This document shows positions 2,714 to 63,681 of a stretch of DNA of 64,000 nucleotides, piece by piece. Each line of letters opens with the position of its first letter. Position 1 is the stretch's first letter. Under the pieces are notes generated by a model. It saw nothing but the letters and a program-made list of their open reading frames with translations, was not told where the DNA came from and made no database searches. Made by a program: the position numbers and the translations under genes. Source of the DNA: an uncultured Chloroflexia bacterium (lineage in GTDB: Bacteria; Chloroflexota; Limnocylindria; Limnocylindrales; CSP1-4); NCBI GenBank assembly GCA_963720825.1, contig CAVRGY010000005.1, positions 1,200 through 65,199 on the forward strand, given 5' to 3'.

Positions 2714-3768
2714 CGTTGCGTCTCCCCGGTGCCGCCGGCGCTGGCCACGGCCTGGGCCTGTCCGGCGTCGACGACCACCGGCTTGAGGAACGGCATCCTC
2801 GCCCGGAGGTCGGCGCCGACGTGCTCGATCTGGTGATCACGGTCCTGCTGGCGGAGCCGGGCGAACTCGCGCCCGCCGGACTCCTGCTCGGCCACCCAGC
2901 GGGTCGCGAACGAGCCGCTCTGGATGTCGGCGAGCACGTCCTTCATCGCCGCCTTTGCCCCCTCCGTGACCCGCGGGCCGGAGACATAGTCGCCGTACTC
3001 CGCGGTGTCGCTGACGCTGAAGCGCATGAAGTTGAGGCCGCCCCGGTACATCAGGTCGACGATCAGCTTGAGCTCGTGCATCGTCTCGAAGTACGCGAGC
3101 TCGGGCTGGTACCCCGCCTCGACCAGCGTCTCGAAGGCGGCCTTGACCAGCGCCGACACGCCGCCGCACAACAGCGCCTGCTCACCGAACAGGTCGGTCT
3201 CGGTCTCCTCCTTGAACGTTGTCTCGAGTACGCCGGCCCGCGTCGCGCCGATGCCCCGGGCGTAGGCGAGGACCCGCGCGCGGGCGGTACCCGACCCGTC
3301 CTGCTCGACCGCGAACAGCGCCGGCACGCCGCCGCCCTGCTCGTACACACTGCGCAGGAGGTGGCCGGGGCCCTTGGGCGCGACCATCCCGACGTCGACC
3401 GTGGCCGGCGGCGCGATGAGGGAGAACCGGATGTTGAACCCGTGCGCGAACATCAGCAGCGCGCCGGGCTTGAGGTTGGGTGCGATGTCCCGTTCGTAGA
3501 CCGCCCGCTGGGCCGTGTCGGGGACCGCGATCATCACCACGTCCGCGGCGCGGACGGCATCGGCGGTGTCGAGCACGCGGAACCCGGCGGACTCGGCGAG
3601 CGCCCGGCTCTTGGACCCGGCGGCGAGCCCGACGACGACATCGACCCCGCTGTCGCGCAGGTTGAGGGCATGTGCGTGGCCCTGGCTCCCGTAGCCGATG
3701 ACCGCGACGGTCTGGCCCTCGAGCGCCGACGGATCCGCGTCCGCGTCGTAGTACATCTTCGCCGTCAC
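2710..3768 (-). CDS. ilvC: ketol-acid reductoisomerase
   Basis: 352-aa ORF starting [41 protein letters not shown], a typical IlvC N-terminus and Rossmann motif. The GTG start overlaps the ilvN stop as GTGA. Confidence 0.95.
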
Positions 3769-4358
3769 AGCTTGAGTGCCTCCTCGATCGATCCGGCGCC
3801 GCGCAGCATCACCACCGCGCCCGTCCGGACCATCTCCTTGATCCCGTAGCCGCGCAGCAGCGCGACCAGGGCGTCTATCTCGGCCTCGGTCCCCGTCGCC
3901 TCGACGATGACCGACTCCGGCGCGATGTCCACGATCCGGCCCTTGTACAGCTCGACGATCTTGATCACCTCGGCCCGGTTGGTATCGGTTGCGCGCGCCT
4001 TGATGAACGCCAGCTCGTGCTCGACCAGCTGCTCAGCGCTGACGTCCTGGACCTTGAGCACGTCGACCAGCCGGTAGAGCTGCTTGGCGGCCTGCTCGAC
4101 CGCCACGTCGTCGCCGTGCAGGGTCAGCGTCATGCGGCTGATGTGCGCCTTGTCGGTGCGCGACACGGCCAGCGAGTCGATGTTGAAGTTACGCGCCCGC
4201 ATCAGGCTCGCGACGCGGTTGAGGACGCCCGGCTTGTCGAGCACGAGCACGACCAGGATGTGCCGCCGCGAGACGCCGCTGCCGGGGATGGCCCGAGGCG
4301 GCGGGGCGACGTGGGCGGGCTGCTCGTCGGTCGTGCCCGGAACGGGTTCGGTGCTCAT
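3765..4358 (-). CDS. ilvN: acetolactate synthase small (regulatory) subunit
   Basis: Internal ATG at 4358 of the 285-aa ORF. It reads MSTEP...[39 protein letters not shown] (ACT domain). The start overlaps the ilvB stop as ATGA. Confidence 0.9.
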
Positions 4359-6211
4359 TCCTCGGGCACCCCCCAGGTCTCGATCAGGTCGGACAGGCCC
4401 TTGCCCGCCGGCATCATCGGGAACACGTTCTGCTCCTCCGCGATCTCGAACCAGATCAGGACCGGTCCGTCGATCGCCTGGGCCGCCCGGATCGTCTCGT
4501 CGACCTGGTCGGTCCGCGTCGCCTTGAACGCGGGGATCCCGTACGCGTCCGCGAGCTTGACAAAATCGGGCCCCGGCAGGTGCGACGAGTGGTAGTTGCC
4601 GGCGTACACGATCTCCTGCCACTGCCGGATCATGCCCAGCTTCTTGTTGTCCAGGAGCGCGATCTTGACCGGGATCCGGTCGACGGCCAGGGTCATCAGC
4701 TCCTGGCTCGTCATCTGGAAGCCGCCATCACCGACGATCGCCCAGGTCTCGGCGTCGGGGTTGCCGAGCGCGGCGCCCATCGCCGCCGGCACCGCGTAGC
4801 CCATCGTGCCCAGCCCGCCCGACGACAGGTGGCTGTGCGGCCGCCGGAACTTGGCGTACCGGGCCAGCCACATCTGGTTCTGCCCCACGTCGGCCACGTA
4901 GGTCGCTACATGGTCGGTCAGGTCGCCGATCCTGCTGACCACGAAGTCTGCCGACAGGAGGCCGTCGCGCCAGGCCCCCGAGCCGTGCCACGTCGCGGCT
5001 TCCGACTCGCGGCGCCACTCGGCCAGCTCCCCGTGGTAGTCGGCGCGGTCAGCGGGGTCGACCTCCGGGACGAGCCTGGTGAGGCCCGCCAGGACGTGGC
5101 ATGCGTCGCCCACGATGGGGACCTCGACCGCCACGTTCTTGCCGATCTCGGCCGGGTCGATGTCCGCGTGGATGATCCGGGCGTACGGGGCGTACGTGCG
5201 CACGTTGCCGGTGACCCGGTCGTCGAAGCGCATCCCGATTGCGATCAGCAGGTCCGCGCTCTGGATGGCCCGGTTGACGTGCTTCCAGCCGTGCATCCCC
5301 ATGTAGCCGTAGGCGAGCGGGTGCTCCTCGTCGATGGCACCGATCCCCAGCAGCGTCCAGGCAACCGGGATCTGGGTCCGCTCCGCGAACACCCGCAGCT
5401 CGTCCCACGCCTCGGCGATCAGGACGCCGTGGCCGGCCAGGATCAGCGGCCGCTTGGCCGCCGCAATCTCCTTCGCGGCCAGCTTGAGCTGCTTCGGATG
5501 GCCCTCGATGGTGGGTCGGAAGCCCGGCAGCTCGGCGACCACGTCCTCGAGGGAGGGGTGCTCGACACGTGTCTCCTGCTGGAGGGCGTCCTTGGTGATG
5601 TCGATGTGGACGGGGCCGGGGCGGCCGCTCCGGGCCAGGTGGAACGCTTCGGCGACGACCCGCGGGATGTCGTCGGCGTTGCGGACCAGGTAGTTGTGCT
5701 TGGTCATCGGCAGCGTGATGCCGGTGATGTCGATCTCCTGGAAGGCGTCCTTCCCGAGCAGCGCCGCCGGCACGTTGCCGGTGATGGCAACCATGGGCAC
5801 CGAGTCCAGCTGGGCCGTGGCGATCGCGGTCACCAGGTTGGTCGCGCCCGGGCCACTGGTGCCCATGCACACGCCCACCCTGCCGCTGGCGCGGGCGTAG
5901 CCGTCCGCCGCATGGCCACCGCCCTGCTCGTGCCGCACGAGCACGTGCCGGATCTCGGGGTAGTCGGCCAGGATGTCGTAGATCGGGAGGATGACGCCGC
6001 CGGGGTAGCTGAACAGGACGTCGGTGCCCTGGCGCACGAGCGCCTCCATCAGCGCGTCGGCACCGATCCGCGTTCGCTTGCGCGGCCGGACCTCGTGGAG
6101 CATCGCCTTGCGGGCCCGCTCGACGGCGGCAGCCGTCGGGGTCCCGTCGTCGGGGACGTGGCTGCGCCGTTCCGGCGGGCTGGCTGCCGATTGCCCTCGC
6201 GTCATCGTCAT
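4355..6211 (-). CDS. ilvB: acetolactate synthase large subunit
   Basis: ThDP-enzyme motifs GGHAADGYARASGRVGVCMGTSGPGATNLVT and GLGTMGYAVPAAMGA..IVGDGGFQM. The ORF opens at TTG 6259, but I prefer ATG 6211, which is preceded by GGAGGG. The start is uncertain by about 50 nt. Confidence 0.92.
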   Translation of the reverse strand: MTMTRGQSAASPPERRSHVPDDGTPTAAAVERARKAMLHEVRPRKRTRIGADALMEALVRQGTDVLFSYPGGVILPIYDILADYPEIRHVLVRHEQGGGHAADGYARASGRVGVCMGTSGPGATNLVTAIATAQLDSVPMVAITGNVPAALLGKDAFQEIDITGITLPMTKHNYLVRNADDIPRVVAEAFHLARSGRPGPVHIDITKDALQQETRVEHPSLEDVVAELPGFRPTIEGHPKQLKLAAKEIAAAKRPLILAGHGVLIAEAWDELRVFAERTQIPVAWTLLGIGAIDEEHPLAYGYMGMHGWKHVNRAIQSADLLIAIGMRFDDRVTGNVRTYAPYARIIHADIDPAEIGKNVAVEVPIVGDACHVLAGLTRLVPEVDPADRADYHGELAEWRRESEAATWHGSGAWRDGLLSADFVVSRIGDLTDHVATYVADVGQNQMWLARYAKFRRPHSHLSSGGLGTMGYAVPAAMGAALGNPDAETWAIVGDGGFQMTSQELMTLAVDRIPVKIALLDNKKLGMIRQWQEIVYAGNYHSSHLPGPDFVKLADAYGIPAFKATRTDQVDETIRAAQAIDGPVLIWFEIAEEQNVFPMMPAGKGLSDLIETWGVPEE

Positions 6212-6260
6212 TCGTCGGGCCCTCCGCCCGGGTGGTCCCGCGACCTCCCGAACATGCAAA

Positions 6261-6284
6261 GACCCTCGCCACCCGGCGAGGGTC
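6261..6284 (-). terminator. GC-rich hairpin followed by TTTG on the minus strand, about 50 nt upstream of the ilvB start (terminator or attenuator-like)
   Basis: gaccctcgcc/accc/ggcgagggtc forms a perfect 10-bp stem. On the minus strand it is followed by TCTTTGCATG. Confidence 0.45.
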
Positions 6285-6988
6285 CCGTTGGTTCTCGGTT
6301 GGCGCTGCGCCTAGTGGCGCTCGTCCCTCCGCGTCCCTCCGTTCTCCCGCCGGGAGCCGGTAATGAGGAGCCCAACAAGGCTGTCAAGGCCGGCAAGGAG
6401 CGAGCGGAGAAGGTCGAGCAGCAGGGAGCTGTGGCCATCGAGGTCGCGCAGGGGCACGGTCACGCGCCGGCCATCCGACGTCACGACGACGGCGACTGCG
6501 TGGCGATCCCGACCCTGGAAGAAGTCCAAGCGACCTGGCTCCTGTTCGCCCGCCAGTGGCGGGTCCGCGCAGTCTAGCCGCCATCGGATGGGCGCGCAAC
6601 CACGCGAGCCGCGGCCTGCCTGCCGCCAGCCCCGCGGCGACCAGGCCCTGACGCCGCCTCGGCGCGGCCACGCGGCCTCGCGCGGCCACCTCGCCCCCGC
6701 GGCCATCGGCGCGGCCACGCGGCCATCGGCGCGGCAACCGGCGATCGCGCCGGGGTGTCAGGATCGGCCGGCCTCGGTCGCCCCGACACCTGACCGACAT
6801 CAAACCGACGGATCTGACGCCGAGATCAGCCGCATCGATGCCTGATGGGGATCGTCGGGACCATAGAACGTGGGTCGTGACGCCCCGGCGGCATCAGCCC
6901 AAGCGGAACGAGATGGGGTCGGCGCAGATTCCGGCGGAACCGTGCTGCGGATAAGCGCCAGCCAAGTCCCAGGCGGTTTGATGGGGCA

Positions 6989-25660: not shown

Positions 25661-28388
25661 TCAGCCCGGGTCGACGGTCAGGGTGCCGACCATCCCCGCC
25701 GCGGCGTGGCCGGGGATCGAGCACATGACCCGATAGGTCCCGGGCGTATCGAGCGCGAACCGGAGGCGCGACGTCTGGCCGGGCCGCGCCGGGACGTCGA
25801 GGTTCGCGACGCCCTCGATCATCCAGTCGTGGACGACGGTGTCCCGGTTCGTGAACTCGAGCACCACCCACTCGCCGGCGGTGACGTGCAGGTCGGCAGG
25901 CACGAAGCGCATGTCGCGCGCGGTGACGTCCAGGTGGGGCAGGCCGGCATCGATCGCGCGGTCGGCGGCCAGCACGCCGCCGGCGAGGCCCAGGCCGAGC
26001 AGCGCGACCCCACCCAGGAACACCGCATCGCGGGCAAGGCCGAGCGGGCCGCGCCGCAGCTGGGCCACGTGCCCGGGCCGGACGTCGATCCCCCGCAGCC
26101 GGAGCGAGTTGGTCACCACGCTGACCGACGACAGGGCCATGGCGCCGGCGGCCATCGCCGGGTTGAGCGCGATCCCGAAGGCCGGGTACAGCGCGCCCAT
26201 CGCGATCGGGATCAGCACGACGTTGTAGGCGAACGCCCAGAACAGGTTCTGCCGGATGACGCGCACGGTGGCCCGCGACAACGCGATCGCGGACGCGACC
26301 AGCCGCGGATCCCCGCCCACGAGCGTCACGTCCGATGCCTCGATCGCCACGTCCGCGCCGGTGCCGATCGCGACGCCGAGGTCGGCCCGGGCGAGCGCCG
26401 GCGCATCGTTGATGCCATCACCGACCATGGCCACCCGGTGCCCGTCGGCCTGGAGACGCCCGATCGTCGCGTCCTTGTCCTCGGGAAGCACCTCGGCGAT
26501 GACGTGGTCCGCGGCGATCCCGACCTGGCGCGCAACGGCCTCGGCCGTGACCCTCGCGTCGCCCGTCAGCAGCCACACGTCGATGCCTGCCTCGCGAAGA
26601 TCGCGGACAGCCGCCGCCGATTCGGGCTTGACCGGGTCCGAGACCGCGATCAGCGCAGCGGCCTTCCCGTCGATCCCGACGTACACCACCGTGCCGCCCT
26701 CGGCGGCCGCCGCCTCCGCGGGTGCGAGCAGGGCCGACAGGTCGACGCCCTCCTCCGCCATCAATCGCCGGCTGCCGACGATCACCGCGGATCCGTCGAC
26801 GGTTCCGCGGACGCCGCGTCCGACGACCGCCTCGAACCCCTCGACCTTGTGGAATCCGAGCTCGGTCTCGCGCGCCTTGCGCACGATCGCCTCGCCCAGC
26901 GGGATGCTCGCTGCCGGTCTCGAGGGAGCCGGCGAGATCCAGCACGCGGTCCGGCGTGAGGTCGGGCAACCCCGCCAGACCCGGCACGTGGACCACCGAC
27001 GAGACCGCCGGCCGCCCGAGCGTCAGCGTGCCGGTCTTGTCCATCACGACGGTGTCGATCCGCCCGGCGATCTCGAGCGCCTCGCCGCCGCGGACGAGGA
27101 TCCCGGCCTCGGCGCCCTTGCCGGTGCCGACCATGATCGCGGTGGGCGTGGCCAGCCCCATTGCGCACGGGCACGCGATCACCACGACGCCGATGAATGC
27201 GGTGAGTGAGAGCGTCAGCCGCGGCTCGGGTCCCAGCACGAACCACAGCACGAAGGTCAGCGCGGCAACCGCGATCACCGCGGGCACGAACACCTCGCTG
27301 ATCCGGTCGGCGAGCCGCTGGATCGGTGCCTTGGATCCCTGGGCACGCTGGACGAGCTCCACGATCCGGGCAAGCGCGGTGTCGCGGCCGACGCGGGTGG
27401 CGCGCATGACGAACGAGCCGGTCGTGTTGAGGGTGGCACCGATGACCTCGTCCCCGGTCGCCTTCGTCCTCGGGATCGGCTCCCCGGTGAGCATCGATTC
27501 GTCGACGGGTGACGCGCCTTCGACGACGACGCCGTCGACCGGCACCTTGTCGCCCGGGCGCACCCGCAGCAGGTCGCCCGGGACCACGACGGCGAGGTCG
27601 ACATCCTCCTCGACGCCGTTTCGCAACCGGCGCGCGGTCGTCGCCTGGAGCCCGACCAGACGCCGGATGGCGCCGGTCGTGCGGCCCTTGGCACGTTGCT
27701 CGAGCCACCTGCCGAGCAGGATCAGGCCGATGATGATGGTGGCGCTGTCGAAGTAGGACTCGGCGCGCAGGCCGGCCTGGTGGACGATCCCCGGCCACAT
27801 CGTGACGAACACGGAGTACCCCCAGGCCGCCGAGGTGCCGACGGCCACCAGCGTGTCCATCGTCGCGCCGCCGTGTCGTGCGGCCCGCCAGGCGGCCCGG
27901 TAGAACCGGCCACCGGCCCAGAACTGGATGAACGTCGCCGGCCACAGGATCAGCTTGTTGAGGTCCTCCATCGCCACCAGCGTCTGGGGCGCGAACATCA
28001 GGACCATGATCACGGCCGCGGACGCGATCGCGACCAGCGCCTGGAACAGCGTCTGGCGCTGGGCACGCTCGCGCTCGAGATCGTCGGCGCTGACCTCCGC
28101 CTCGAGCGATGTGCCCGCCGTCCCCGCGTCCGCCGAGGGCTCTGCCTTGACCTCGTAGCCGGCCGCTTCCACGGCCCGGACCAGCTCGTCGCGCCCGACG
28201 AGCGCCGGGTCCACGAACACGGACGCTCGCTCGGTGGCAAGGTTGACCGCGGCCTGCTCGACGCCGGGGGTCTTGTTGAGGAACCGCTCGATCCGGTTGA
28301 CGCACGACGCGCAGGTCATGCCCTCGATCGGGAGGACGATCTCGATCGGCTGGGACGCGGTGGGGAGGGACGCGGTGTTCGTGCTCAT
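25661..28388 (-). pseudogene. copA: copper-translocating P1B-type ATPase with an extra TM helix and a C-terminal cupredoxin domain; one frame break as assembled
   Basis: It carries N-terminal [29 protein letters not shown] and GDGINDAP. The frame breaks inside [15 protein letters not shown] at a CCC run (26901-26903). The C-terminal 130 aa consist of a TM helix plus a cupredoxin domain (VVHDW ... MCSIPGHAAAGM). Confidence 0.88.
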
Positions 28389-53182: not shown

Positions 53183-53470
<288 letters not shown>

Positions 53471-53638
53471 GTCAGAAGCTCTCCTGGAGAAGATCGAGGG
53501 CTCGGGGCGCGGGAGCGACCACGCACCGCACAAGAGGGTACACCGGCACGCCGGAACCGGGAACGCACGGCCGCATCGGGAGCCGCCGGCTGCTTTGCGT
53601 GGCCCCGCGGCCGACCTCGTCGACGCGAGTCGCCGGCG

Positions 53639-54208
53639 TCAGCCTCCGGAGCTGGGCACCGGCAGCGCGGGCGGGCTCGCGAGCGGCACACCGGCGGCAT
53701 CGACGAACCTCACCGCAACGACCATCCCCTTCTGCCAGTGGCCGGGAATGTGGCAGCCGACAAACCAGCCAGCGGACGCGGAGGCGGCGTCGACCGGGAC
53801 GGTCCAGGTCACGTCGACCCGCTGGCCCGAGCCCACGACGACGCGCACGCCGCGAAACCCGGGCGGCGCCGCGACAACGGGCGTCGGGCCCGGCGGGCTG
53901 CCGACGGTCGCACCCTCCGCGGCCTCCCAGGCAAGCTGGTCGCCGAGATCTCCGATGATCGCCTCGTGCGTCTCCAGCCCGCCATTGACGACGTGGAGCA
54001 GCACGGTCTCGCCGGGCACGAGATCGACCACCGAGGGCACGAACGCGTAATCGTGGGCGACGATGTTGATCTCGCGCGGCGACGCGCTCGTCCCGGGCGT
54101 GATGGGCGGCGTGCCGGGTGGCGCAGCCGCGTCGCAGGACGAGACGCCGAGCGCAGCCGCGACGGCCAGCAGGAGCAGCAGCGGGAACCGGGCGGGTGAC
54201 GGACGCAT
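53639..54208 (-). CDS. cupredoxin-domain lipoprotein (type-1 copper site)
   Basis: Starts MRPSPARFPLLLLLAVAAALGVSSC (lipobox). It also has LETHEA and GCHIPGHWQKGM (His...Cys-x2-His-x4-Met). Confidence 0.8.
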   Translation of the reverse strand: MRPSPARFPLLLLLAVAAALGVSSCDAAAPPGTPPITPGTSASPREINIVAHDYAFVPSVVDLVPGETVLLHVVNGGLETHEAIIGDLGDQLAWEAAEGATVGSPPGPTPVVAAPPGFRGVRVVVGSGQRVDVTWTVPVDAASASAGWFVGCHIPGHWQKGMVVAVRFVDAAGVPLASPPALPVPSSGG

Positions 54209-54301
54209 CGCGCCATGATGCGTCAGGTCGCGCCGATGCCCATGCAGCGGGATCGCTCCTTGACACCGCGCGGCGGGGGCCCGTAGCGTGCGCGCCACCT
54301 C

Positions 54302-54651: not shown

Positions 54652-55431
54652 TTATCTGCGACTTATCTCATCGGCGAGCCTCGGACCCTCGACGGGCGAC
54701 ATCCGACAACGCGCGACGAGGTAGACCGGCACGGGCGTTCGATCCGGGGCGCGCGCGACCCAGTCGTCGCCGGGCACCGGCTCGACGGCGACCTCCACGA
54801 TCAGGCCGTGGCGTCGAAGGCCGTTCAGATAGGTCGAAAGCATCCGATGGTTCGCCCCGACCTGGCCGCGGATCCCGCTGTTCTGTGCCAACCACCAGCC
54901 CTCGGCGTAGTAGCCGCCCGTGGCCGGCCAGCTGCTGGGCGCGTCGGCATCCCAGCCAGGGAAGCACGGATGCAGGATCGAGAACACGAACCAGCCGTCG
55001 GGCACCAGGACCCGGCCGACCGTCGAGAGGGCCCCGTCCAGGTCATCGATATCGCTGAGGCCGAAGTTGCAGACCACACCGTCGAACGACCGACCCGGCA
55101 ACTCGTTCGGTCGCGCGGCATCAGCGTGGACGTACTCGATCGCGAGCGGAAAGTCCCTTTCGATCGCACGAGCTCGTTGCAGCAGCTCGCCTGAAAGGTC
55201 GACCGCGACCACCGCGCCACCCCGTCTCGCCAATTCCCGCGCGACCCGTCCCTGCCCGCACGCGAGTTCGAGCAAGCGGAGGCCGGCGCAGTCGGGCAGA
55301 AGCTCGAGCAGGGCGGCCGTCGCCGGGTCGGTGACGTCCTCGCCGACCAGCCGGTCATAGAACTGGGGGATCCCGTCGTACCGGGCGCGTCGCTCTGTCA
55401 CGGCTTGTTCCGTCGGCACCACACCAACCAC
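54652..55431 (-). CDS. class I SAM-dependent methyltransferase
   Basis: Reads LLELACGQGRVARELARRGGAVVAVDLS ... FDGVVCNFGLSDIDDL ... VLVPDGWFVFS. The proposed GTG start overlaps the YHS gene stop (TAGTG). The start is uncertain. Confidence 0.78.
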   Translation of the reverse strand: MVGVVPTEQAVTERRARYDGIPQFYDRLVGEDVTDPATAALLELLPDCAGLRLLELACGQGRVARELARRGGAVVAVDLSGELLQRARAIERDFPLAIEYVHADAARPNELPGRSFDGVVCNFGLSDIDDLDGALSTVGRVLVPDGWFVFSILHPCFPGWDADAPSSWPATGGYYAEGWWLAQNSGIRGQVGANHRMLSTYLNGLRRHGLIVEVAVEPVPGDDWVARAPDRTPVPVYLVARCRMSPVEGPRLADEISRR

Positions 55432-55601
55432 TACATCGACGGTTCGTAGTCCTCGGCCAGGTACTTCTCCGGGTCGTCCTTGAACTCGAGCAGGCAGCCC
55501 TTGCCGCAGAACCAGTAGGTCTTGCCGTCGTGCTCGAGCGACAGCTGCGACGTCGCGGTGTCGACGTCCATGCCGCATACCGGGTCCTTGACGATGGCCA
55601 T
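55431..55601 (-). CDS. YHS-domain (TRASH-like metal-binding) small protein
   Basis: MAIVKDPVCGMDVDTATSQLSLEHDGKTYWFCGKGCLLEFKDDPEKYL. Confidence 0.85.
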   Translation of the reverse strand: MAIVKDPVCGMDVDTATSQLSLEHDGKTYWFCGKGCLLEFKDDPEKYLAEDYEPSM

Positions 55602-57532: not shown

Positions 57533-58749
57533 CTAAGGCCCGCCCTGCTCCCCGGCTTCCGCGGCCCGACGTGCCGCAAGCGCAACCTCGCGCTCCCGGA
57601 TCGCGGCCCGCTGCGGCTCCAGCCGGCGCTCCTCGCCGACCGTCCGCCGCTCCTCGTCGCGCATCCAGACCGCGACCAGCAGGAGCACGGTGACGAGGAA
57701 CGCGAAGTCGCCGCCCAGCCACATGATGGCGCCCGCCAGCTGCTGGTCCTCGAGCGGCGTCGGGCCCCACGAGCGCACGGTTGTCGCGTAGTGGTGGTAG
57801 AGCGGGGTGGATGCCATGTAGACGGCGACGGCGAGGAACGTCATCTGTGGCATCTGGATGCCGGCGTACATGACCCGGACCGCGGAGCTCATCCGCCACG
57901 GCGACGGGTCGGGACCGACGATCGGCCACCAGAACAGCAGCGCCGAGGCCAGGAACAGGGCGTGCTCCAGCATGTGGACGGGCACGTTCTCGAGCGACAG
58001 GTCGAACAGCGGTGAGAAATGGGTGCCCCACATGACCGCCGCGAACAGGACTGCGGCGACGACCGGGAACGACAGCGCCCTCAGCACGCGCGAGTGCAGG
58101 ACCGGCAGGATCCAGCGATGCCGCGTCTCGGCCGACGACGCGCGCAGGATCAGCGTGATCGGCCCTGCGTACAGGAGCAGCGGCGGGGCGATCAGGGTCA
58201 GCAGCAGGTGCTGGACCATGTGATCCGAGAACAGCGTCGTGTCGTACAGGCCGATCCCGGAGTCGAGCGCGAACAGGATCGTAGCCGATCCCACGCGAGC
58301 CAGGCGACGGTGCGGGCGCGCGGCACCGGGTTGTCGGGATGCGCCCGGTTGACGCGGGTGAGGCCGGCGCGCCAGAGCAGGATGGCGGCCAGCGCCGGCA
58401 GCCAGACGGTGGGATCGAACGACCAGTCGAGCAGGAACGACACCAATGTCGGCTCGCCCAGCAGCCGGCCCCCGTGGGCGAGCGCGGCGGGGACGGCGAC
58501 GAGCAGGCCGATGGGGACGGCGAGGAGCAGGCCGATGACGGGCGCGCCGGCAGCCCTGGCCGACCGGACGCCGACGCGGGCCGGTCGCGGGGCGGCGGCC
58601 GATAGGGCGGCGGCCGACGCGGCGGCCGGCGCGGCGGCGGACGTCGCGGCGCGGGCGCGGCGATCTGGCTGTCGCTCCTGACGAGGAATCACGCCCGTAT
58701 TGTCCCGCGATTCGCGACACGACCCGGTCGCGCGGGCCCCACGTGCCAT
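57533..58749 (-). pseudogene. ctaG: cytochrome c oxidase assembly factor CtaG (Caa3_CtaG family), one frame change
   Basis: N-terminal TM region ..FDPTVWLPALAAILLWRAGLTRVNRAHP..TVAWLAW is in one frame. GSATILFALDSGIGLYDTTLFSDHMVQHLLL...HMLEHALF... is in the next. The shift is at the run 58290-58292. The start is uncertain. Confidence 0.8.
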
Positions 58750-58865
58750 TCGGCAGGGGTGGATGGTCCATCCGGACCCCCCGCGCCGCGATCCTCTTGT
58801 ATGATGCGCGCGTCCGGCGCCCCCTTCGGGGCGGCGCGCGTCCCCGGACGGCGACCTCCAGCTGC

Positions 58866-58913: not shown

Positions 58914-60044
58914 ATGTCGATGCCCCCCCGGTCGAGGACCGGGTCCGGCCCCCTTGTTGCCGGGCTGCTCATCCTGTTGGCCGTCGCGGTCGCCGCGATC
59001 GTCCTGTACGCCTCGGGCGCGACGCTGCCCGGGATCTGGGACAGCTTCTTCCCGGTGGCCGGCGGGGACGGGGTCACCGATCGATCCCACAGCACCAAGT
59101 CCCTGTACGACATCGTGTTCTATATCGCGGCGGCGATCTTCGTCCTGGTCGAAGGCGTGATCGTGTTCACCGTCTTCCGCTATCGACGCAAGCCCGGCGA
59201 CGACGAGCTGCCGCCGCAGATCCACGGCAACAACCTGGTCGAGGTCATCTGGACCGCCATCCCGACGGTCATCGTCGCGTTCCTGTTCGTGATGTCGTGG
59301 CAGACCCTCAACACGGTCGACGCGAAGACGCCCAGCGACATCTACGTGCGCGCGGTCGCCGCCCGGTTCCAGTGGTCGTTCGACTACCTCGACCGGCCCG
59401 ACGGCCCCGATGCCAAGGTGCTGTTCTCGCAGGCGCTCCCGGTGGGCGACACCGGCGGCCTGTTCCTGCCCGTGGGCGAGCCCGTCCAGGTGAGCCTCCG
59501 CAGCCTCGACGTGATCCACGCGTTCTACGTCCCCAAGTTCCTGTTCAAGCGGGACGTGATCCCGGGCAAGACGAACACGTTCGACTTCACCGTGGACGAG
59601 GCGGGCACGTATCGGGGCCAGTGCGCGGAGCTGTGTGGCCCGTTCCACGGCTCGATGGTGTTCGACGTCCACGCGATCCCGAAGGCGGACTTCGACAGCT
59701 GGCTCCAGAAGCAGATCGAGGAGGCGAGCGCGACCCCGGCACCGGCCGCGTCGGGCGCCGCCGAGGGACCGGTCGTCGAGCTCGCCGCGCAGAACATCGC
59801 GTTCTCGACGGGTGACCTCCAGGCACCGGCCGGCCAGCCGTTCACGATCCATTTCAAGAACGATGACACCAGCGTCCCGCACGACGTCGAGATCAAGGAC
59901 GGGAGCGGCAACGTCGCGTTCAAGGGCGACATCATCACCGGCCCTTCCGATACCAACTATTCCGTCCCGGCCCTCACGGCGGGCACCTACACCTTCCAGT
60001 GCACCGTTCATCCGAACATGACCGGCACGCTCACGGTCCAGTAA
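58914..60044 (+). CDS. ctaC: cytochrome c oxidase subunit II with an additional C-terminal cupredoxin domain
   Basis: It has two TM helices and the CuA site HAFYVP...GQCAELCGPFHGSM. An Ala/Pro linker follows, then about 95 aa with PHDVEI...FQCTVHPNMTG. Confidence 0.92.
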   Translation: MSMPPRSRTGSGPLVAGLLILLAVAVAAIVLYASGATLPGIWDSFFPVAGGDGVTDRSHSTKSLYDIVFYIAAAIFVLVEGVIVFTVFRYRRKPGDDELPPQIHGNNLVEVIWTAIPTVIVAFLFVMSWQTLNTVDAKTPSDIYVRAVAARFQWSFDYLDRPDGPDAKVLFSQALPVGDTGGLFLPVGEPVQVSLRSLDVIHAFYVPKFLFKRDVIPGKTNTFDFTVDEAGTYRGQCAELCGPFHGSMVFDVHAIPKADFDSWLQKQIEEASATPAPAASGAAEGPVVELAAQNIAFSTGDLQAPAGQPFTIHFKNDDTSVPHDVEIKDGSGNVAFKGDIITGPSDTNYSVPALTAGTYTFQCTVHPNMTGTLTVQ

Positions 60045-60054
60045 GGGAACAGGG

Positions 60055-61677
60055 ATGGCAACGACGACCCTCAACCCCGCCGCTCCCGCCTATCGAAGCG
60101 GCCTGTACGCATGGCTCACGACCACCGATCACAAGAAGATCGGGATCATGTACCTGGTCAACTCGATCCTGTTCTTCCTGGCCGGTGGGATCCTCGCCCT
60201 CGTCGTCCGGCTCGAGCTTGCCCAGCCCGGGATGCAGCTCGTGAGCGAATCGTTCTACAACCAGGCGTTCACGATGCACGCCTCGTTCATGCTGTTCCTG
60301 TTCATCATCCCGATCCTGGCGGGGTTCGGGAACTACGCCGTCCCGCTCCAGATCGGGGCGCCGGACATGGCGTTCCCGCGGATCAACGCGCTGTCGTTCT
60401 GGCTGCTGCCGCTGGGTGGCGCCCTGATGGCCTCGGGCTTCCTGGCCTCGGGCGGCGCGGCGGCCTCCGGCTGGACCGAGTACCCGCCGCTGTCGGGCGC
60501 AAAGTTCAACGGCGCGGGCACGGACCTGTGGATCGTCGGGCTGACCCTGATCGGGACCAGCTCGATCCTGGGCGCGGTCAACTTCCTGGTCACGATCTTC
60601 AAGATGCGGGCGCCGGGCATGACCCTGTTCCGGATGCCGATCCTGGTGTGGACGGTGCTCGTCACCAGCGTGCTCGTCCTGATGGCGACGCCGGTGCTCA
60701 CCAGCGCGCTGATCATGCTGTTCATCGACCGCAACTACGGCGGCAACTTCTTCGATCCGGCGAACGGCGGCCAGGCGGTCCTGTACCAGAACGTGTTCTG
60801 GTTCTACTCGCACCCGGCGGTCTACATCATGATCCTGCCCGCGATGGGCATCGTGTCCGAGGTACTGCCCGTCTTCTCGCGCAAGCCGCTGTTCGGCTAC
60901 AAGGCGTTCGTGTTCGCGACGGTCGGCATCGGCGCCCTCGGCTTCTCCGTGTGGGCCCACCACATGTTCACGACCGGGTCCGTGTTCCTGCCGTTCTTCA
61001 GCCTGATGACGTTCCTGATCGCCGTCCCCACGGGCGTCAAGATGTTCAACTGGATCGCGACCCTGTGGCGGGGCAAGCTCACCTTTGCGACCCCGCTCCT
61101 GTTCGCGATCGGCTTCCTGACGCTGTTCCTGATCGGTGGCCTCAACGGGGCGTTCTCGGCCGCGGTACCGGTGGACTTTGCGCTCCACGACACCTACTGG
61201 GTGGTCGCGCACCTGCACTACGTCCTGTTCGGCGGCTCGGTGTTCGGCGTGTTCGCCGGCATCTACTACTGGTTCCCCAAGATGACCGGCCGGATGCTCG
61301 ACGAGACGCTGGGCAAGATCCAGTTCGTGCTCATGTTCGTCGGCTTCAACCTGACGTTCTTCCCGATGCACCAGCTGGGCCTGGCCGGCATGCCCCGGCG
61401 GATCGCCGACTACGCGGCCAACGCGGGCTGGAGCGAGCTCAACCTCGTGGCGACCATCGGCGGGTTCGTGATCGCCACCAGCATGCTGCCGTTCTTCTGG
61501 AACGTGCTGGTGTCGCTGCGCAGCGGCAAGATCGCCGGCGACGACCCGTGGGGGGCGAACACGCTGGAATGGGCGACCTCGTCGCCGCCGCCCCCGTACA
61601 ACTTCGACCACCTGCCGGAGATCCGCTCGGAGCGCCCGGTGTTCGATGCCCGGCACGGCCGGGTCGCGGATCACTGA
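60055..61677 (+). CDS. ctaD: cytochrome c oxidase subunit I
   Basis: 540 aa with TTDHKKIGIMYL, WFYSHPAVYIMILP and HHMFT, the haem-copper oxidase signatures. Confidence 0.97.
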   Translation: MATTTLNPAAPAYRSGLYAWLTTTDHKKIGIMYLVNSILFFLAGGILALVVRLELAQPGMQLVSESFYNQAFTMHASFMLFLFIIPILAGFGNYAVPLQIGAPDMAFPRINALSFWLLPLGGALMASGFLASGGAAASGWTEYPPLSGAKFNGAGTDLWIVGLTLIGTSSILGAVNFLVTIFKMRAPGMTLFRMPILVWTVLVTSVLVLMATPVLTSALIMLFIDRNYGGNFFDPANGGQAVLYQNVFWFYSHPAVYIMILPAMGIVSEVLPVFSRKPLFGYKAFVFATVGIGALGFSVWAHHMFTTGSVFLPFFSLMTFLIAVPTGVKMFNWIATLWRGKLTFATPLLFAIGFLTLFLIGGLNGAFSAAVPVDFALHDTYWVVAHLHYVLFGGSVFGVFAGIYYWFPKMTGRMLDETLGKIQFVLMFVGFNLTFFPMHQLGLAGMPRRIADYAANAGWSELNLVATIGGFVIATSMLPFFWNVLVSLRSGKIAGDDPWGANTLEWATSSPPPPYNFDHLPEIRSERPVFDARHGRVADH

Positions 61678-61690
61678 GGAGGGCGAGACG

Positions 61691-62356
61691 ATGACCGCAG
61701 ACGCGCAGGTGATCACCACCTCCGACCACGCCCCGGCCGACGCCCACGGGTCCGGCGGGATCGGCATCCCGGTCCTGGGGATGCTCCTGTTCATCACCTC
61801 CGAGGTGATGTTCTTCGCCGGGCTGTTCGCCGCCTACTTCAGCATCCGGGCGAGCTTCATCGACACCGACGGGATCCACCGCTGGCCGCCCAGCGAGTTC
61901 GCCGGGATCCTCAACCCGTTCCGCCTGACCACGGAGCACGGCGATCTCAACCTGATCCTGCCGGCGACCCTGATCCTGATCACCTCCTCGTTCACCTGCC
62001 AGATGGGCCTGTGGGCGATCGGGCGCGACGACCGCCGGGGCTTCATCCGCAATTTCGCCGCCACGGTGATCCTGGGCGCGACCTTCCTGCTGCTCCAGGC
62101 CTACGACTACGGCGTCCTGTTCCACGAGGGCATGACGATGGGCTCGGGCACGTTCGGCACCACGTACTTCACGCTCACCGGCTTCCACGGCGCCCACGTG
62201 TTCGGCGGCGTGCTGATGCTGTCGGTGGTGCTCTACCGGGGTATGGCCGGGCAGTTCTCGGCCCGCCACCACGACATGGTCGAGGCGACGTCGATCTACT
62301 GGCATTTCGTCGACGTCGTCTGGATCCTGCTGTTCTCGACCCTGTACCTGCTGTAG
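61691..62356 (+). CDS. ctaE: cytochrome c oxidase subunit III
   Basis: Reads LFITSEVMFFAGLFAAYF ... TGFHGAHVFGG ... YWHFVDVVWILLF. Confidence 0.92.
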   Translation: MTADAQVITTSDHAPADAHGSGGIGIPVLGMLLFITSEVMFFAGLFAAYFSIRASFIDTDGIHRWPPSEFAGILNPFRLTTEHGDLNLILPATLILITSSFTCQMGLWAIGRDDRRGFIRNFAATVILGATFLLLQAYDYGVLFHEGMTMGSGTFGTTYFTLTGFHGAHVFGGVLMLSVVLYRGMAGQFSARHHDMVEATSIYWHFVDVVWILLFSTLYLL

Positions 62357-62375: not shown

Positions 62376-62561
62376 ATGAAACCCCGCCGCGCCGCCGCCG
62401 TCGGTATCCTGTTCCTGGCGATCGCCGTCTTCTACTGGGTGTTCCCGACGATCGTCGAGCCGGATCGCGTCGACTACGCCGGGCTCACGATGCTGATCGC
62501 CCTGGGCGCCGCGATGTCGATCATGGCGTATGTCCTGTTCGCCGGGTTGAAGCGGAGCTGA
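62376..62561 (+). CDS. small two-TM protein in the subunit IV position of the oxidase operon
   Basis: 61 aa with two hydrophobic helices. It lies 19 nt after ctaE. The assignment rests on position only. Confidence 0.5.
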   Translation: MKPRRAAAVGILFLAIAVFYWVFPTIVEPDRVDYAGLTMLIALGAAMSIMAYVLFAGLKRS

Positions 62562-62571
62562 CGCACAACCG

Positions 62572-63681
62572 ATGCTCGAGGAACTCTGGAACGGCCTGAT
62601 CGAGTTCACGCAGCCGTTCGTGGTCCCCGACTGGGGCTCGCTGATCCAGCTGCTGCCGGTGTTCCTCGCCGGGTTCGTGGCCCTGTACGTCACCTGGACC
62701 GCCTATCGCTTCGCGACCGCGGCGCCGACCCGTCGCGGGATCCGGCGCGTTGCGCCGGTCGCGCCGGAGGGCGTCCACATGCCGGGCCCGACGTTCGCGC
62801 CCCCGCTCGCGGCGTTCGGCGTGTTCATGCTCATGTTCGGGCTGTTCGCAGGCGGGATCTGGCTCGCGGTCGGTGTGCTGATCCTCGCGATCACGCTTCT
62901 CTACTGGGGTCGCGAGGCGCTCCGCGACTACGACCACGTCGCATCGGCGCCAACCGCGCACGCCGCGATCGGCGCCCTTCCGGTGCCCTCGGATGGCGTG
63001 CCGCCCGCCGGGGTCCACATGCCGCCGCCGTCCTTCCGGCCGCTCCTGCTCGCGATCTCGATGACGATCCTGGTCGGCGGGATGGTCGTCGGCGGGTGGG
63101 CGCTCCTGGCCGGGATCGTCGCGCTGGCGCTGACCCTGCTCGGCTGGCTGCGCGACGCGCGCCGCGAGTACGTCGCCGTCGAGACTGCCGACCGGACGGG
63201 CCACCTCGACCTCGGTGGGGCACCCACCTGGCCGAAGGCAACGTTCTCCGCCCTCGCGCTGATCGTCGCCGGCGGCCTGTTGCTGAGCTCCGGCGTGCTC
63301 CCCAACTCGAACCCGGGCGTCGCCGCCAGCGGGGCGCCGCCGGCCGGCGGCGGCGGAGGCGGCGCGGGCGCGTCGGCCGCACCTGCGGGCCCGAGCCTGC
63401 CCGCCGCGGACGCGTCCATCGGGGCACAGGGCATCGCCTATGACGCGAGCACGCTGACCGTCCCGGCCGGCAAGCCGTTCACACTCGCCTTCGACAACCG
63501 CGACGCGGGCATCCCGCACAACGTCGCGATCCACGACGGCTCGGGCGCGGAGCTGTTCAAGGGCGAGATCATCACCGGTCCCAAGGTCATCGTGTACCAG
63601 GTCCCGGCCCTGCCGGCGGGCACGTACACGTTCGTCTGCTCGGTGCACCCGAACATGACCGGGACCGTCACGGCCCAGTAG
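62572..63681 (+). CDS. membrane protein with two tandem Cox4/CtaF-like repeats and a C-terminal cupredoxin domain
   Basis: The repeats are GVHMPGPTFAPPLAAFG..(2 TM)..YWGREALRDY and GVHMPPPSFRPLLLAIS..(2 TM)..GWLRDARREY. A Gly/Ala/Pro linker follows, then IPHNVAI...FVCSVHPNMTG. This domain is clearly paralogous to the ctaC C-terminal domain. Confidence 0.7.
   Translation: MLEELWNGLIEFTQPFVVPDWGSLIQLLPVFLAGFVALYVTWTAYRFATAAPTRRGIRRVAPVAPEGVHMPGPTFAPPLAAFGVFMLMFGLFAGGIWLAVGVLILAITLLYWGREALRDYDHVASAPTAHAAIGALPVPSDGVPPAGVHMPPPSFRPLLLAISMTILVGGMVVGGWALLAGIVALALTLLGWLRDARREYVAVETADRTGHLDLGGAPTWPKATFSALALIVAGGLLLSSGVLPNSNPGVAASGAPPAGGGGGGAGASAAPAGPSLPAADASIGAQGIAYDASTLTVPAGKPFTLAFDNRDAGIPHNVAIHDGSGAELFKGEIITGPKVIVYQVPALPAGTYTFVCSVHPNMTGTVTAQ

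Follow-up and report, generated by a model that had tools for sequence, protein, structure and literature searches.

The C-terminal domain of CtaC

The stretch of DNA analysed here, hereafter the window, comprises 64,000 nucleotides of high-GC DNA (about 66-75% GC) from an uncultured Chloroflexia bacterium. It carries ctaC, the gene for subunit II of a heme-copper oxidase, whose product continues past the CuA domain into a second, C-terminal domain of the cupredoxin class. The gene and the parts of its product are arranged as follows, with the basis of each assignment in parentheses.

58914..60044, + strand: ctaC, heme-copper oxidase subunit II with a C-terminal cupredoxin, 376 aa (open reading frame (ORF), Pfam)
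58953..59291, + strand: membrane region of CtaC with three predicted helices (hydropathy, charge, AlphaFold helices)
59346..59672, + strand: CuA domain, residues 145-253 (Pfam COX2)
59673..59759, + strand: linker, residues 254-282 (AlphaFold model, alignment to 2yev_B)
59760..60041, + strand: type-1 copper cupredoxin domain, residues 283-376, 94 aa (Pfam, AlphaFold, Foldseek)

Position 59760 is the first base of codon 283 and position 60044 the last base of the ctaC stop codon, and both the CuA-domain sequence GQCAELCGPFHGSM and the C-terminal motif PHDVEI...FQCTVHPNMTG are encoded by the ORF 58914..60044 on the + strand. Three helices are predicted at about residues 14-32, 67-85 and 108-126. 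Hydropathy and charge analysis place the N-terminus in the cytoplasm and both the CuA domain and the cupredoxin on the extracytoplasmic side; for the cupredoxin, this placement is a prediction based on the three helices, the charge distribution and the continuity with the CuA domain.

An earlier note on this DNA, made from the sequence, had described a complete CuA domain, and this is borne out by both the Pfam assignment and the ligand set. COX2_TM matches residues 57-130 and COX2 matches residues 145-253; the CuA ligands are H202, C237, C241, H245 and M248, so that CtaC contains the full pattern of a histidine followed by C-x-E-x-C-x3-H-x2-M. H202, C237, E239, C241, H245 and M248 are all invariant. 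Among 59 orthologues every CuA ligand is retained together with W154, a residue that we take to occupy the position of the electron-entry tryptophan in canonical oxidases. The NCBIfam model TIGR02866 (CoxB) covers the N-terminal 265 residues with a score of 180 bits against a cut-off of 147.7. The tail is matched in NCBIfam by the amicyanin and plastocyanin models alone, each below its own cut-off, and the protein is therefore a fusion that no curated family describes.

The same note had reported a further stretch of about 95 residues after an Ala/Pro linker, with a second cupredoxin-like domain and a His...Cys-x2-His-x2-Met pattern. The domain comprises residues 283-376, and the pattern corresponds to H323 and C363-x2-H366-x2-M369, the putative type-1 copper ligands (codons at 59880, 60000, 60009 and 60018, respectively). 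The profile search that had been proposed as a check returns Pfam Cupredoxin_1 at residues 279-375 (E 5e-19, 68.7 bits against a cut-off of 27), and the plastocyanin/azurin family Copper-bind also matches, at residues 291-376 (E 4e-6). Amicyanins are the PDB proteins closest to the domain in sequence (E 1e-8 to 1e-6), and all four ligands (His, Cys, His, Met) are in register in these alignments; the C-x2-H-x2-M spacing is that of the short amicyanin-type ligand loop. Auracyanin 2aan is matched over query residues 16-82 only, which is the N-terminal half (E 1.7e-5).

Structure prediction, likewise suggested in the note, gives the fold of a type-1 copper cupredoxin. The AlphaFold model of the isolated domain has a predicted local distance difference test (pLDDT) score of 97 and forms an eight-stranded Greek-key beta-sandwich. 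In Foldseek its best matches are the auracyanins of Roseiflexus and Chloroflexus, with template modelling (TM) scores of 0.85-0.87; amicyanin (TM 0.71), plastocyanin (about 0.70) and also rusticyanin are found at lower levels. When the whole CtaC model is used as query, Foldseek returns subunit II matches only and nothing on the extra domain. The full-length model has a mean pLDDT of 81.5, which falls to about 71-76 around residues 271-290 and rises above 90 in the beta-sandwich beyond residue ~290.

Conservation follows the putative copper site. H323, C363, H366 and M369 are invariant in the 59 orthologues (67-92% identity), and in 25 diverse fused domains (29-60% identity) the only invariant columns are these four ligands and one glycine; the retention in orthologues that the note had named as a check is thus strict. 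By sequence and predicted structure, the C-terminal domain of CtaC is a conserved type-1 copper cupredoxin, and it is expected to bind copper. Two other assignments were considered and rejected. A duplicated CuA domain is incompatible with the single Cys of the cupredoxin and with amicyanins and auracyanins as its closest relatives. Identity with auracyanin itself is incompatible with the fusion to CtaC and with the short C-x2-H-x2-M, which is not the azurin-like long loop.

Position relative to caa3 oxidases and distribution of the fusion

In the PDB, the whole CtaC protein is most closely related to subunit II of the Thermus thermophilus caa3 oxidase (2yev_B, E 5e-41), which is also the top Foldseek match to the CtaC model (37% identity in that alignment). 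The 2yev_B alignment extends from the membrane helices over the CuA domain to the helix and Ala/Pro linker behind it, and it ends at query residue 282, equivalent to chain residue 238. Through 'EEASATPAPAASGA' CtaC aligns with the linker that connects CuA to cytochrome c in the Thermus enzyme. The Thermus chain has 337 residues and continues past residue 238 into its cytochrome c domain. The claim that the extra domain occupies the place of the caa3 cytochrome c is consequently upheld. In CtaC the linker consists of a conserved helix (residues 257-272) followed by an Ala/Pro/Ser-rich tether, and a CxxCH haem-binding motif was looked for in the protein and is absent.

In subunit I, encoded by the adjacent ctaD gene, the helix VI sequence at residue 253 is FWFYSHPAVY; it has the YS motif and lacks the Glu, as in the A2 type. 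Together with the adjacent gene for a Caa3_CtaG assembly factor, this makes the comparison with caa3 oxidases apt. The absence of CxxCH from CtaC and the cupredoxin nature of residues 283-376 mean that the enzyme is not a caa3 oxidase in the strict sense; it is a close cousin of these oxidases, with a cupredoxin in place of the fused cytochrome c. Fusing the donor onto subunit II is the classic way in which caa3 enzymes work without a soluble carrier. With the caa3 oxidases of Thermus thermophilus (2YEV), and also of Rhodothermus and Bacillus, the cta enzyme shares membership of the A family, the A2 YS motif, Caa3_CtaG and a carrier domain fused after CuA via a homologous helix and Ala/Pro linker. 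It differs from them in that the fused carrier is a 94-aa type-1 copper cupredoxin, CtaC having no CxxCH, and in that the cta operon adds a second cupredoxin on a subunit-IV-like protein. Unlike in Thermus, subunits I and III are encoded by separate genes in the cta operon.

The architecture COX2_TM, COX2 and Cupredoxin_1 is present in all of the best 120 homologues of CtaC (67-99% identity), whose named members belong to Candidatus Limnocylindrales (Chloroflexota). A filter-free search was also made against 1.84 billion cluster representatives (50%-identity clusters), of which the best 150 were examined. In 35 of these, CuA and a type-1 copper motif occur together with no CxxCH; subunit II proteins fused to cytochrome c are found in the same list at 36-44% identity. 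The database labels read 'cytochrome c oxidase subunit II', 'plastocyanin' or 'hypothetical' only.

Species-representative genomes were further scanned with a degenerate DNA pattern for Y-x-F-x-C-x-[VILM]-H-P-x-M-x-G, which detects two-residue ligand loops only. The scan yielded at least 120 loci and bears on the occurrence of the fusion, not on its frequency. CuA-fused copies were found in several metagenome-assembled genomes (MAGs) of Chloroflexota, in one Mycobacteriales-labelled (Actinomycetota) MAG, in one Nitrososphaeraceae archaeon and in one Patescibacteria-labelled MAG that is probably mis-binned. For the Nitrososphaeraceae and Mycobacteriales-labelled proteins the combination of COX2 and Cupredoxin_1 was confirmed by Pfam.

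Other domain combinations were encountered among metagenomic proteins. P0144 (499 aa), one of the 35 representatives above, carries two tandem type-1 copper cupredoxins after CuA, and P0262 (674 aa) has, in this order, CuA, a CxxCH cytochrome c and an azurin-like cupredoxin; parts of the P0262 sequence look frameshifted. Long C-terminal tails without a type-1 motif were rejected as real variants, as they appear frameshifted and Arg-rich.

The cta operon and related cupredoxins

The genes that surround ctaC are the following.

57533..58759, - strand: ctaG, Caa3_CtaG assembly factor, divergent from ctaC (Pfam PF09678, E 4.7e-68)
60055..61677, + strand: ctaD, subunit I, 540 aa, A2-type (Pfam COX1, E 1.3e-166)
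61646..62356, + strand: ctaE, subunit III (Pfam COX3, E 3.7e-34)
62376..62561, + strand: conserved 61-aa protein with two predicted membrane helices, between ctaE and the subunit-IV-like gene
62572..63681, + strand: subunit-IV-like membrane protein with a C-terminal cupredoxin, 369 aa (Pfam, homology)

The ctaD gene starts 11 bp downstream of ctaC. Two of the boundaries were adjusted by comparison with L001, a neighbourhood reached through P0027, a homologue 74% identical to the window CtaC. The start of ctaG is approximate, since the maximal ORF reaches 59113, whereas the L001 orthologue has 408 aa and ends before ctaC. The true start of ctaE is probably the ATG near 61688, because its L001 orthologue has 225 aa. 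The 61-aa protein has no match in Pfam; its gene is syntenic in six genomes, among them L001, L024, L044, L075 and L106, and it may encode a small oxidase subunit.

The subunit-IV-like protein provides the operon with its second cupredoxin. Pfam assigns Cupredoxin_1 (E 4.5e-12) and, weakly, Cyt_c_ox_IV, the actinobacterial subunit IV family. The sequence predicts four to six membrane helices, with the cupredoxin outside the membrane; within the membrane part, the motif G-V-H-M-P-x-P-[ST]-F marks an internal duplication. This second cupredoxin occupies 63415-63678, has H316, C356, H359 and M362 as ligands, and is 59% identical to that of CtaC (E 2e-35). More than 120 homologues were found (58-96% identity), some of them named 'cytochrome c oxidase subunit 4' by NCBI. 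The gene is as well conserved as ctaC, and the operon with two cupredoxins is syntenic in at least five other genomes (L024, L039, L044, L075 and L106). We infer that the protein belongs to the oxidase.

The same domain is also attached to complex III. Related Limnocylindrales have an operon for a b6c-type complex III, with genes for cytochrome b6, subunit IV and a Rieske protein; its cytochrome c, to which Cupredoxin_1 is fused, is represented by the following gene.

L102:979-2094, - strand: membrane-anchored monohaem cytochrome c with a C-terminal Cupredoxin_1, last gene of the complex III operon

Such a protein is encoded in nine loci (L102, L036, L047, L048, L080, L082, L095, L103 and L117), and its cupredoxin in L102 is 56-57% identical to both window cupredoxins. 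The complex III operon of L047 and the cta operon of L075 lie 40 kb apart on a single 2-Mb contig. By extrapolation from these relatives, the source genome of the window probably also has a complex III operon. The relatives also have lipoprotein versions of the cupredoxin, which combine a signal peptide and a lipobox Cys with a long Ala/Pro/Ser tether. The tethered-cupredoxin system is thus wider than the single fused module of CtaC, and its function is proposed from sequence, models and gene context. The earlier note was right that the extra domain is real; it is not a lone module, being one of several tethered paralogues.

Directly upstream of cytochrome b6, three of these genomes encode a ~620-aa flavo-iron-sulfur protein (L102:4258-6129, - strand; L047:4286-6253; L048:1206-3041). 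It is GltD-like, with Fer4_20, Pyr_redox_2 and two 4Fe-4S motifs, and is an unusual partner for a bc-type complex.

Several further copper-related genes are found in the window. A copper P-type ATPase (HMA, E1-E2_ATPase and HAD) is encoded at 25661-28388 on the - strand; its C-terminal domain is a cupredoxin whose loop, CSIPGHAAAGM, is azurin-like. A one-base frameshift near 26891-26909, in the SEHP|LGEAIV region, interrupts the gene and reflects either an assembly error or a pseudogene. A lipoprotein-like ORF at 53639-54298 (- strand) has a signal peptide, a lipobox-like ...GVSSC and a cupredoxin-like His...C-H-I-P-G-H-W-Q-K-G-M; it returned no Pfam or PDB sequence match. It adjoins a ferredoxin gene (53183-53533) and has a syntenic counterpart upstream of the L001 cta operon (6172-6744); its product may be an additional copper carrier. 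Between this putative cupredoxin lipoprotein and the cta region lies a gene for a 56-aa metal-binding YHS-domain protein (55431-55601, - strand, Pfam E 4e-17), and L001 has an unannotated 62-aa gene there.

A possible route of electrons to CuA

Taken together, these observations make it probable that electrons travel from complex III to CuA by way of the tethered cupredoxins, a view based on sequence, structural models and gene context. Quinol would be oxidised by the b6c-type complex III through cytochrome b6, subunit IV and the Rieske protein, and the electrons would pass to the haem of the membrane-anchored cytochrome c subunit and on to the cupredoxin at its C-terminus. The next carrier would be the cupredoxin tethered to CtaC, that of the subunit-IV-like protein, or both, reached either directly within a complex III-complex IV (III-IV) supercomplex or via lipid-anchored cupredoxins of the same family. 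From CuA, electrons would proceed to heme a and to the heme a3-CuB site, where O2 would be reduced. The cupredoxin of CtaC would act as a resident entry module, as the fused cytochrome c does in caa3 enzymes, and the fusion would exchange haem for copper at the entry to the oxidase. Since the cupredoxin is also found on the cytochrome c subunit of complex III, the chain still includes haem c. Tethered carriers would suit cells that, like the Chloroflexota in the general view, are monoderm and have no outer membrane to hold soluble ones. The suggestion of a built-in cupredoxin electron entry module is supported in this sense, each of the note's predictions that lends itself to computation having been borne out, with copper binding and the order and direction of electron transfer deduced from sequence and models.

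Some observations weigh against this relay. Several candidate donors to CuA exist, namely two oxidase-linked cupredoxins and the lipoprotein paralogues; the linker is modelled with lower confidence in the AlphaFold model of CtaC; and the complex III operon was not found in the 64-kb window. Moreover, a neighbour-joining tree of 34 cupredoxin domains of ~90 aa, from the window and the related loci, shows no separation by host protein and a partial one by lineage. Similarity is 45-51% between host classes and 46-55% within them. As the tree is not sorted by host, it gives no support to a functional specialisation of the CtaC copy; domain exchange, co-evolution among paralogues or poor resolution from 90 residues are all possible causes of the similarity across classes.

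A domain with a redox-active type-1 copper need not form the link to complex III. It may be a side port that receives electrons from extracytoplasmic dehydrogenases or passes them to copper enzymes such as NirK, while the main flux runs through the subunit-IV-linked or lipoprotein cupredoxin. Amicyanin accepts electrons from methylamine dehydrogenase, and the amicyanins are the closest PDB relatives of the domain by sequence; roles could be divided among the several tethered paralogous cupredoxins, and the tree gives the CtaC copy no unique clade. We regard this arrangement as unlikely, given that the domain takes the very place of the caa3 cytochrome c, through which electrons physiologically enter CuA, that no dehydrogenase or NirK gene is present in the conserved operon neighbourhood, and that the fusion to CtaC is universal among the best 120 homologues.

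A function in copper supply, as a chaperone or store for CuA or CuB during assembly and not as an electron carrier, is very improbable. Cupredoxin-fold copper chaperones exist, e.g., CupA of Streptococcus pneumoniae, and the window is rich in copper-handling genes, such as the CopA ATPase with its cupredoxin tail and the YHS-domain protein. The conserved site of CtaC is nevertheless a classical His/Cys/His/Met redox site and not a Cys/Met-rich Cu(I) chaperone site, and a chaperone would make little sense on the cytochrome c of complex III, where the same domain recurs. Downstream of the operon, L001 also has separate, dedicated genes for Sco1/SenC and a PF04314-family CuA chaperone, so that the fused domain is not needed for this task. 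It is the combination of the classical ligand set, the fusion to cytochrome c and these separate chaperones that favours a redox role over a chaperone role. Least probable of all is that the domain delivers no electrons to CuA and is either an appendage, vestigial or structural, or a catalytic module resembling a 'purple cupredoxin' (acting, e.g., on NO). The purple cupredoxin of Nitrosopumilus (5fc9) is among the structural matches (TM 0.67), but classical electron carriers match better. The distant homologue P0187 apparently lacks the Cys ligand; against decay, the four ligands stay invariant across 29-92% identity as other positions of the domain change, and most 'ligand-less' tails are visibly frameshifted assemblies.

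A broader form of the relay can be put forward more tentatively. Limnocylindria and their relatives may possess a 'copper-wired' chain, in which cupredoxin-to-cupredoxin exchange would lead from complex III to CuA, probably in a III-IV supercomplex, and in which the mutually similar tethered cupredoxins on the complex III cytochrome c subunit, on subunit II, on the subunit-IV-like subunit and on lipoproteins would be members of one family. To our knowledge, coupling of complexes III and IV without a soluble carrier or a haem carrier at the oxidase entry is undescribed for any organism.

Full-text literature searches found no description or characterisation of a cupredoxin on the C-terminus of subunit II, and none of the cytochrome c-cupredoxin protein of the complex III operon. 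The statement of the earlier note that it knew of no characterised example therefore stands, with the addition that near-precedents exist. In haloarchaeal ba3 (B-type) oxidases, halocyanin is fused to subunit IIa, as seen in sequences of Halobacterium and Haloarcula (PMC3128077). Compared by description, these proteins also carry a blue-copper partner covalently on a membrane subunit of the oxidase and resemble the subunit-IV-like cupredoxin protein; they differ in being archaeal and B-type, with the cupredoxin N-terminal to a single helix and not C-terminal to CuA.

The best structural matches are auracyanins, type-1 copper proteins that are tethered to the membrane in Chloroflexus and Roseiflexus, members of the same phylum. 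Auracyanins are thought to carry electrons onward from a quinol oxidoreductase and work with alternative complex III. Unlike the CtaC domain, which has a short amicyanin-type loop, they are separate polypeptides, and their sequence similarity to it is partial. Sulfocyanin (SoxE) of the Sulfolobus SoxM supercomplex and AcoP are membrane-anchored cupredoxins that link a bc-like or cytochrome c donor to CuA. In the Acidithiobacillus rus operon, the cup gene lies just before COX2 (bioRxiv 10.1101/2020.03.01.968255). What SoxE and AcoP/Cup have in common with the cta system is a membrane-anchored cupredoxin that is the partner of an aa3-type oxidase and is encoded together with it; they differ in being separate subunits, in coming from acidophiles and in belonging to other cupredoxin subfamilies.

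For the 'plastocyanin-copper oxidase' of ammonia-oxidising archaea, plastocyanin-like proteins have been treated as donors (PMC4084955). The fused archaeal protein found in the pattern scan is located as follows.

L040:~3300-6400, + strand: Nitrososphaeraceae MAG subunit II, COX2 with a C-terminal Cupredoxin_1 (Pfam, pattern scan)

In L040, subunit II is followed by subunit I and then by a gene for a membrane-anchored cupredoxin, whose domain is nearly identical to the fused one, and this order parallels that of the bacterial operon. The archaeal protein differs in its 24% identity over the aligned region and in its long Asn/Thr/Ala-rich linker, and it is probably the product of an independent event. 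We know of no complex III with a cytochrome c subunit that pairs with a thaumarchaeal oxidase.

The arrangement amounts to the donor-fusion solution of caa3 oxidases rebuilt with copper instead of haem. It is found in very widespread, uncultured Chloroflexota of soil and freshwater; a second and apparently independent occurrence is in ammonia-oxidising archaea of soil. If the proposed relay is correct, these enzymes would constitute a new subclass of A-family oxidases, for which 'Cu-aa3' is a possible name, and would offer, in one natural polypeptide, a system in which to study how electrons pass from type-1 copper to CuA. The annotation of respiratory chains in these abundant organisms, and the estimate of their demand for copper versus iron, would then change.

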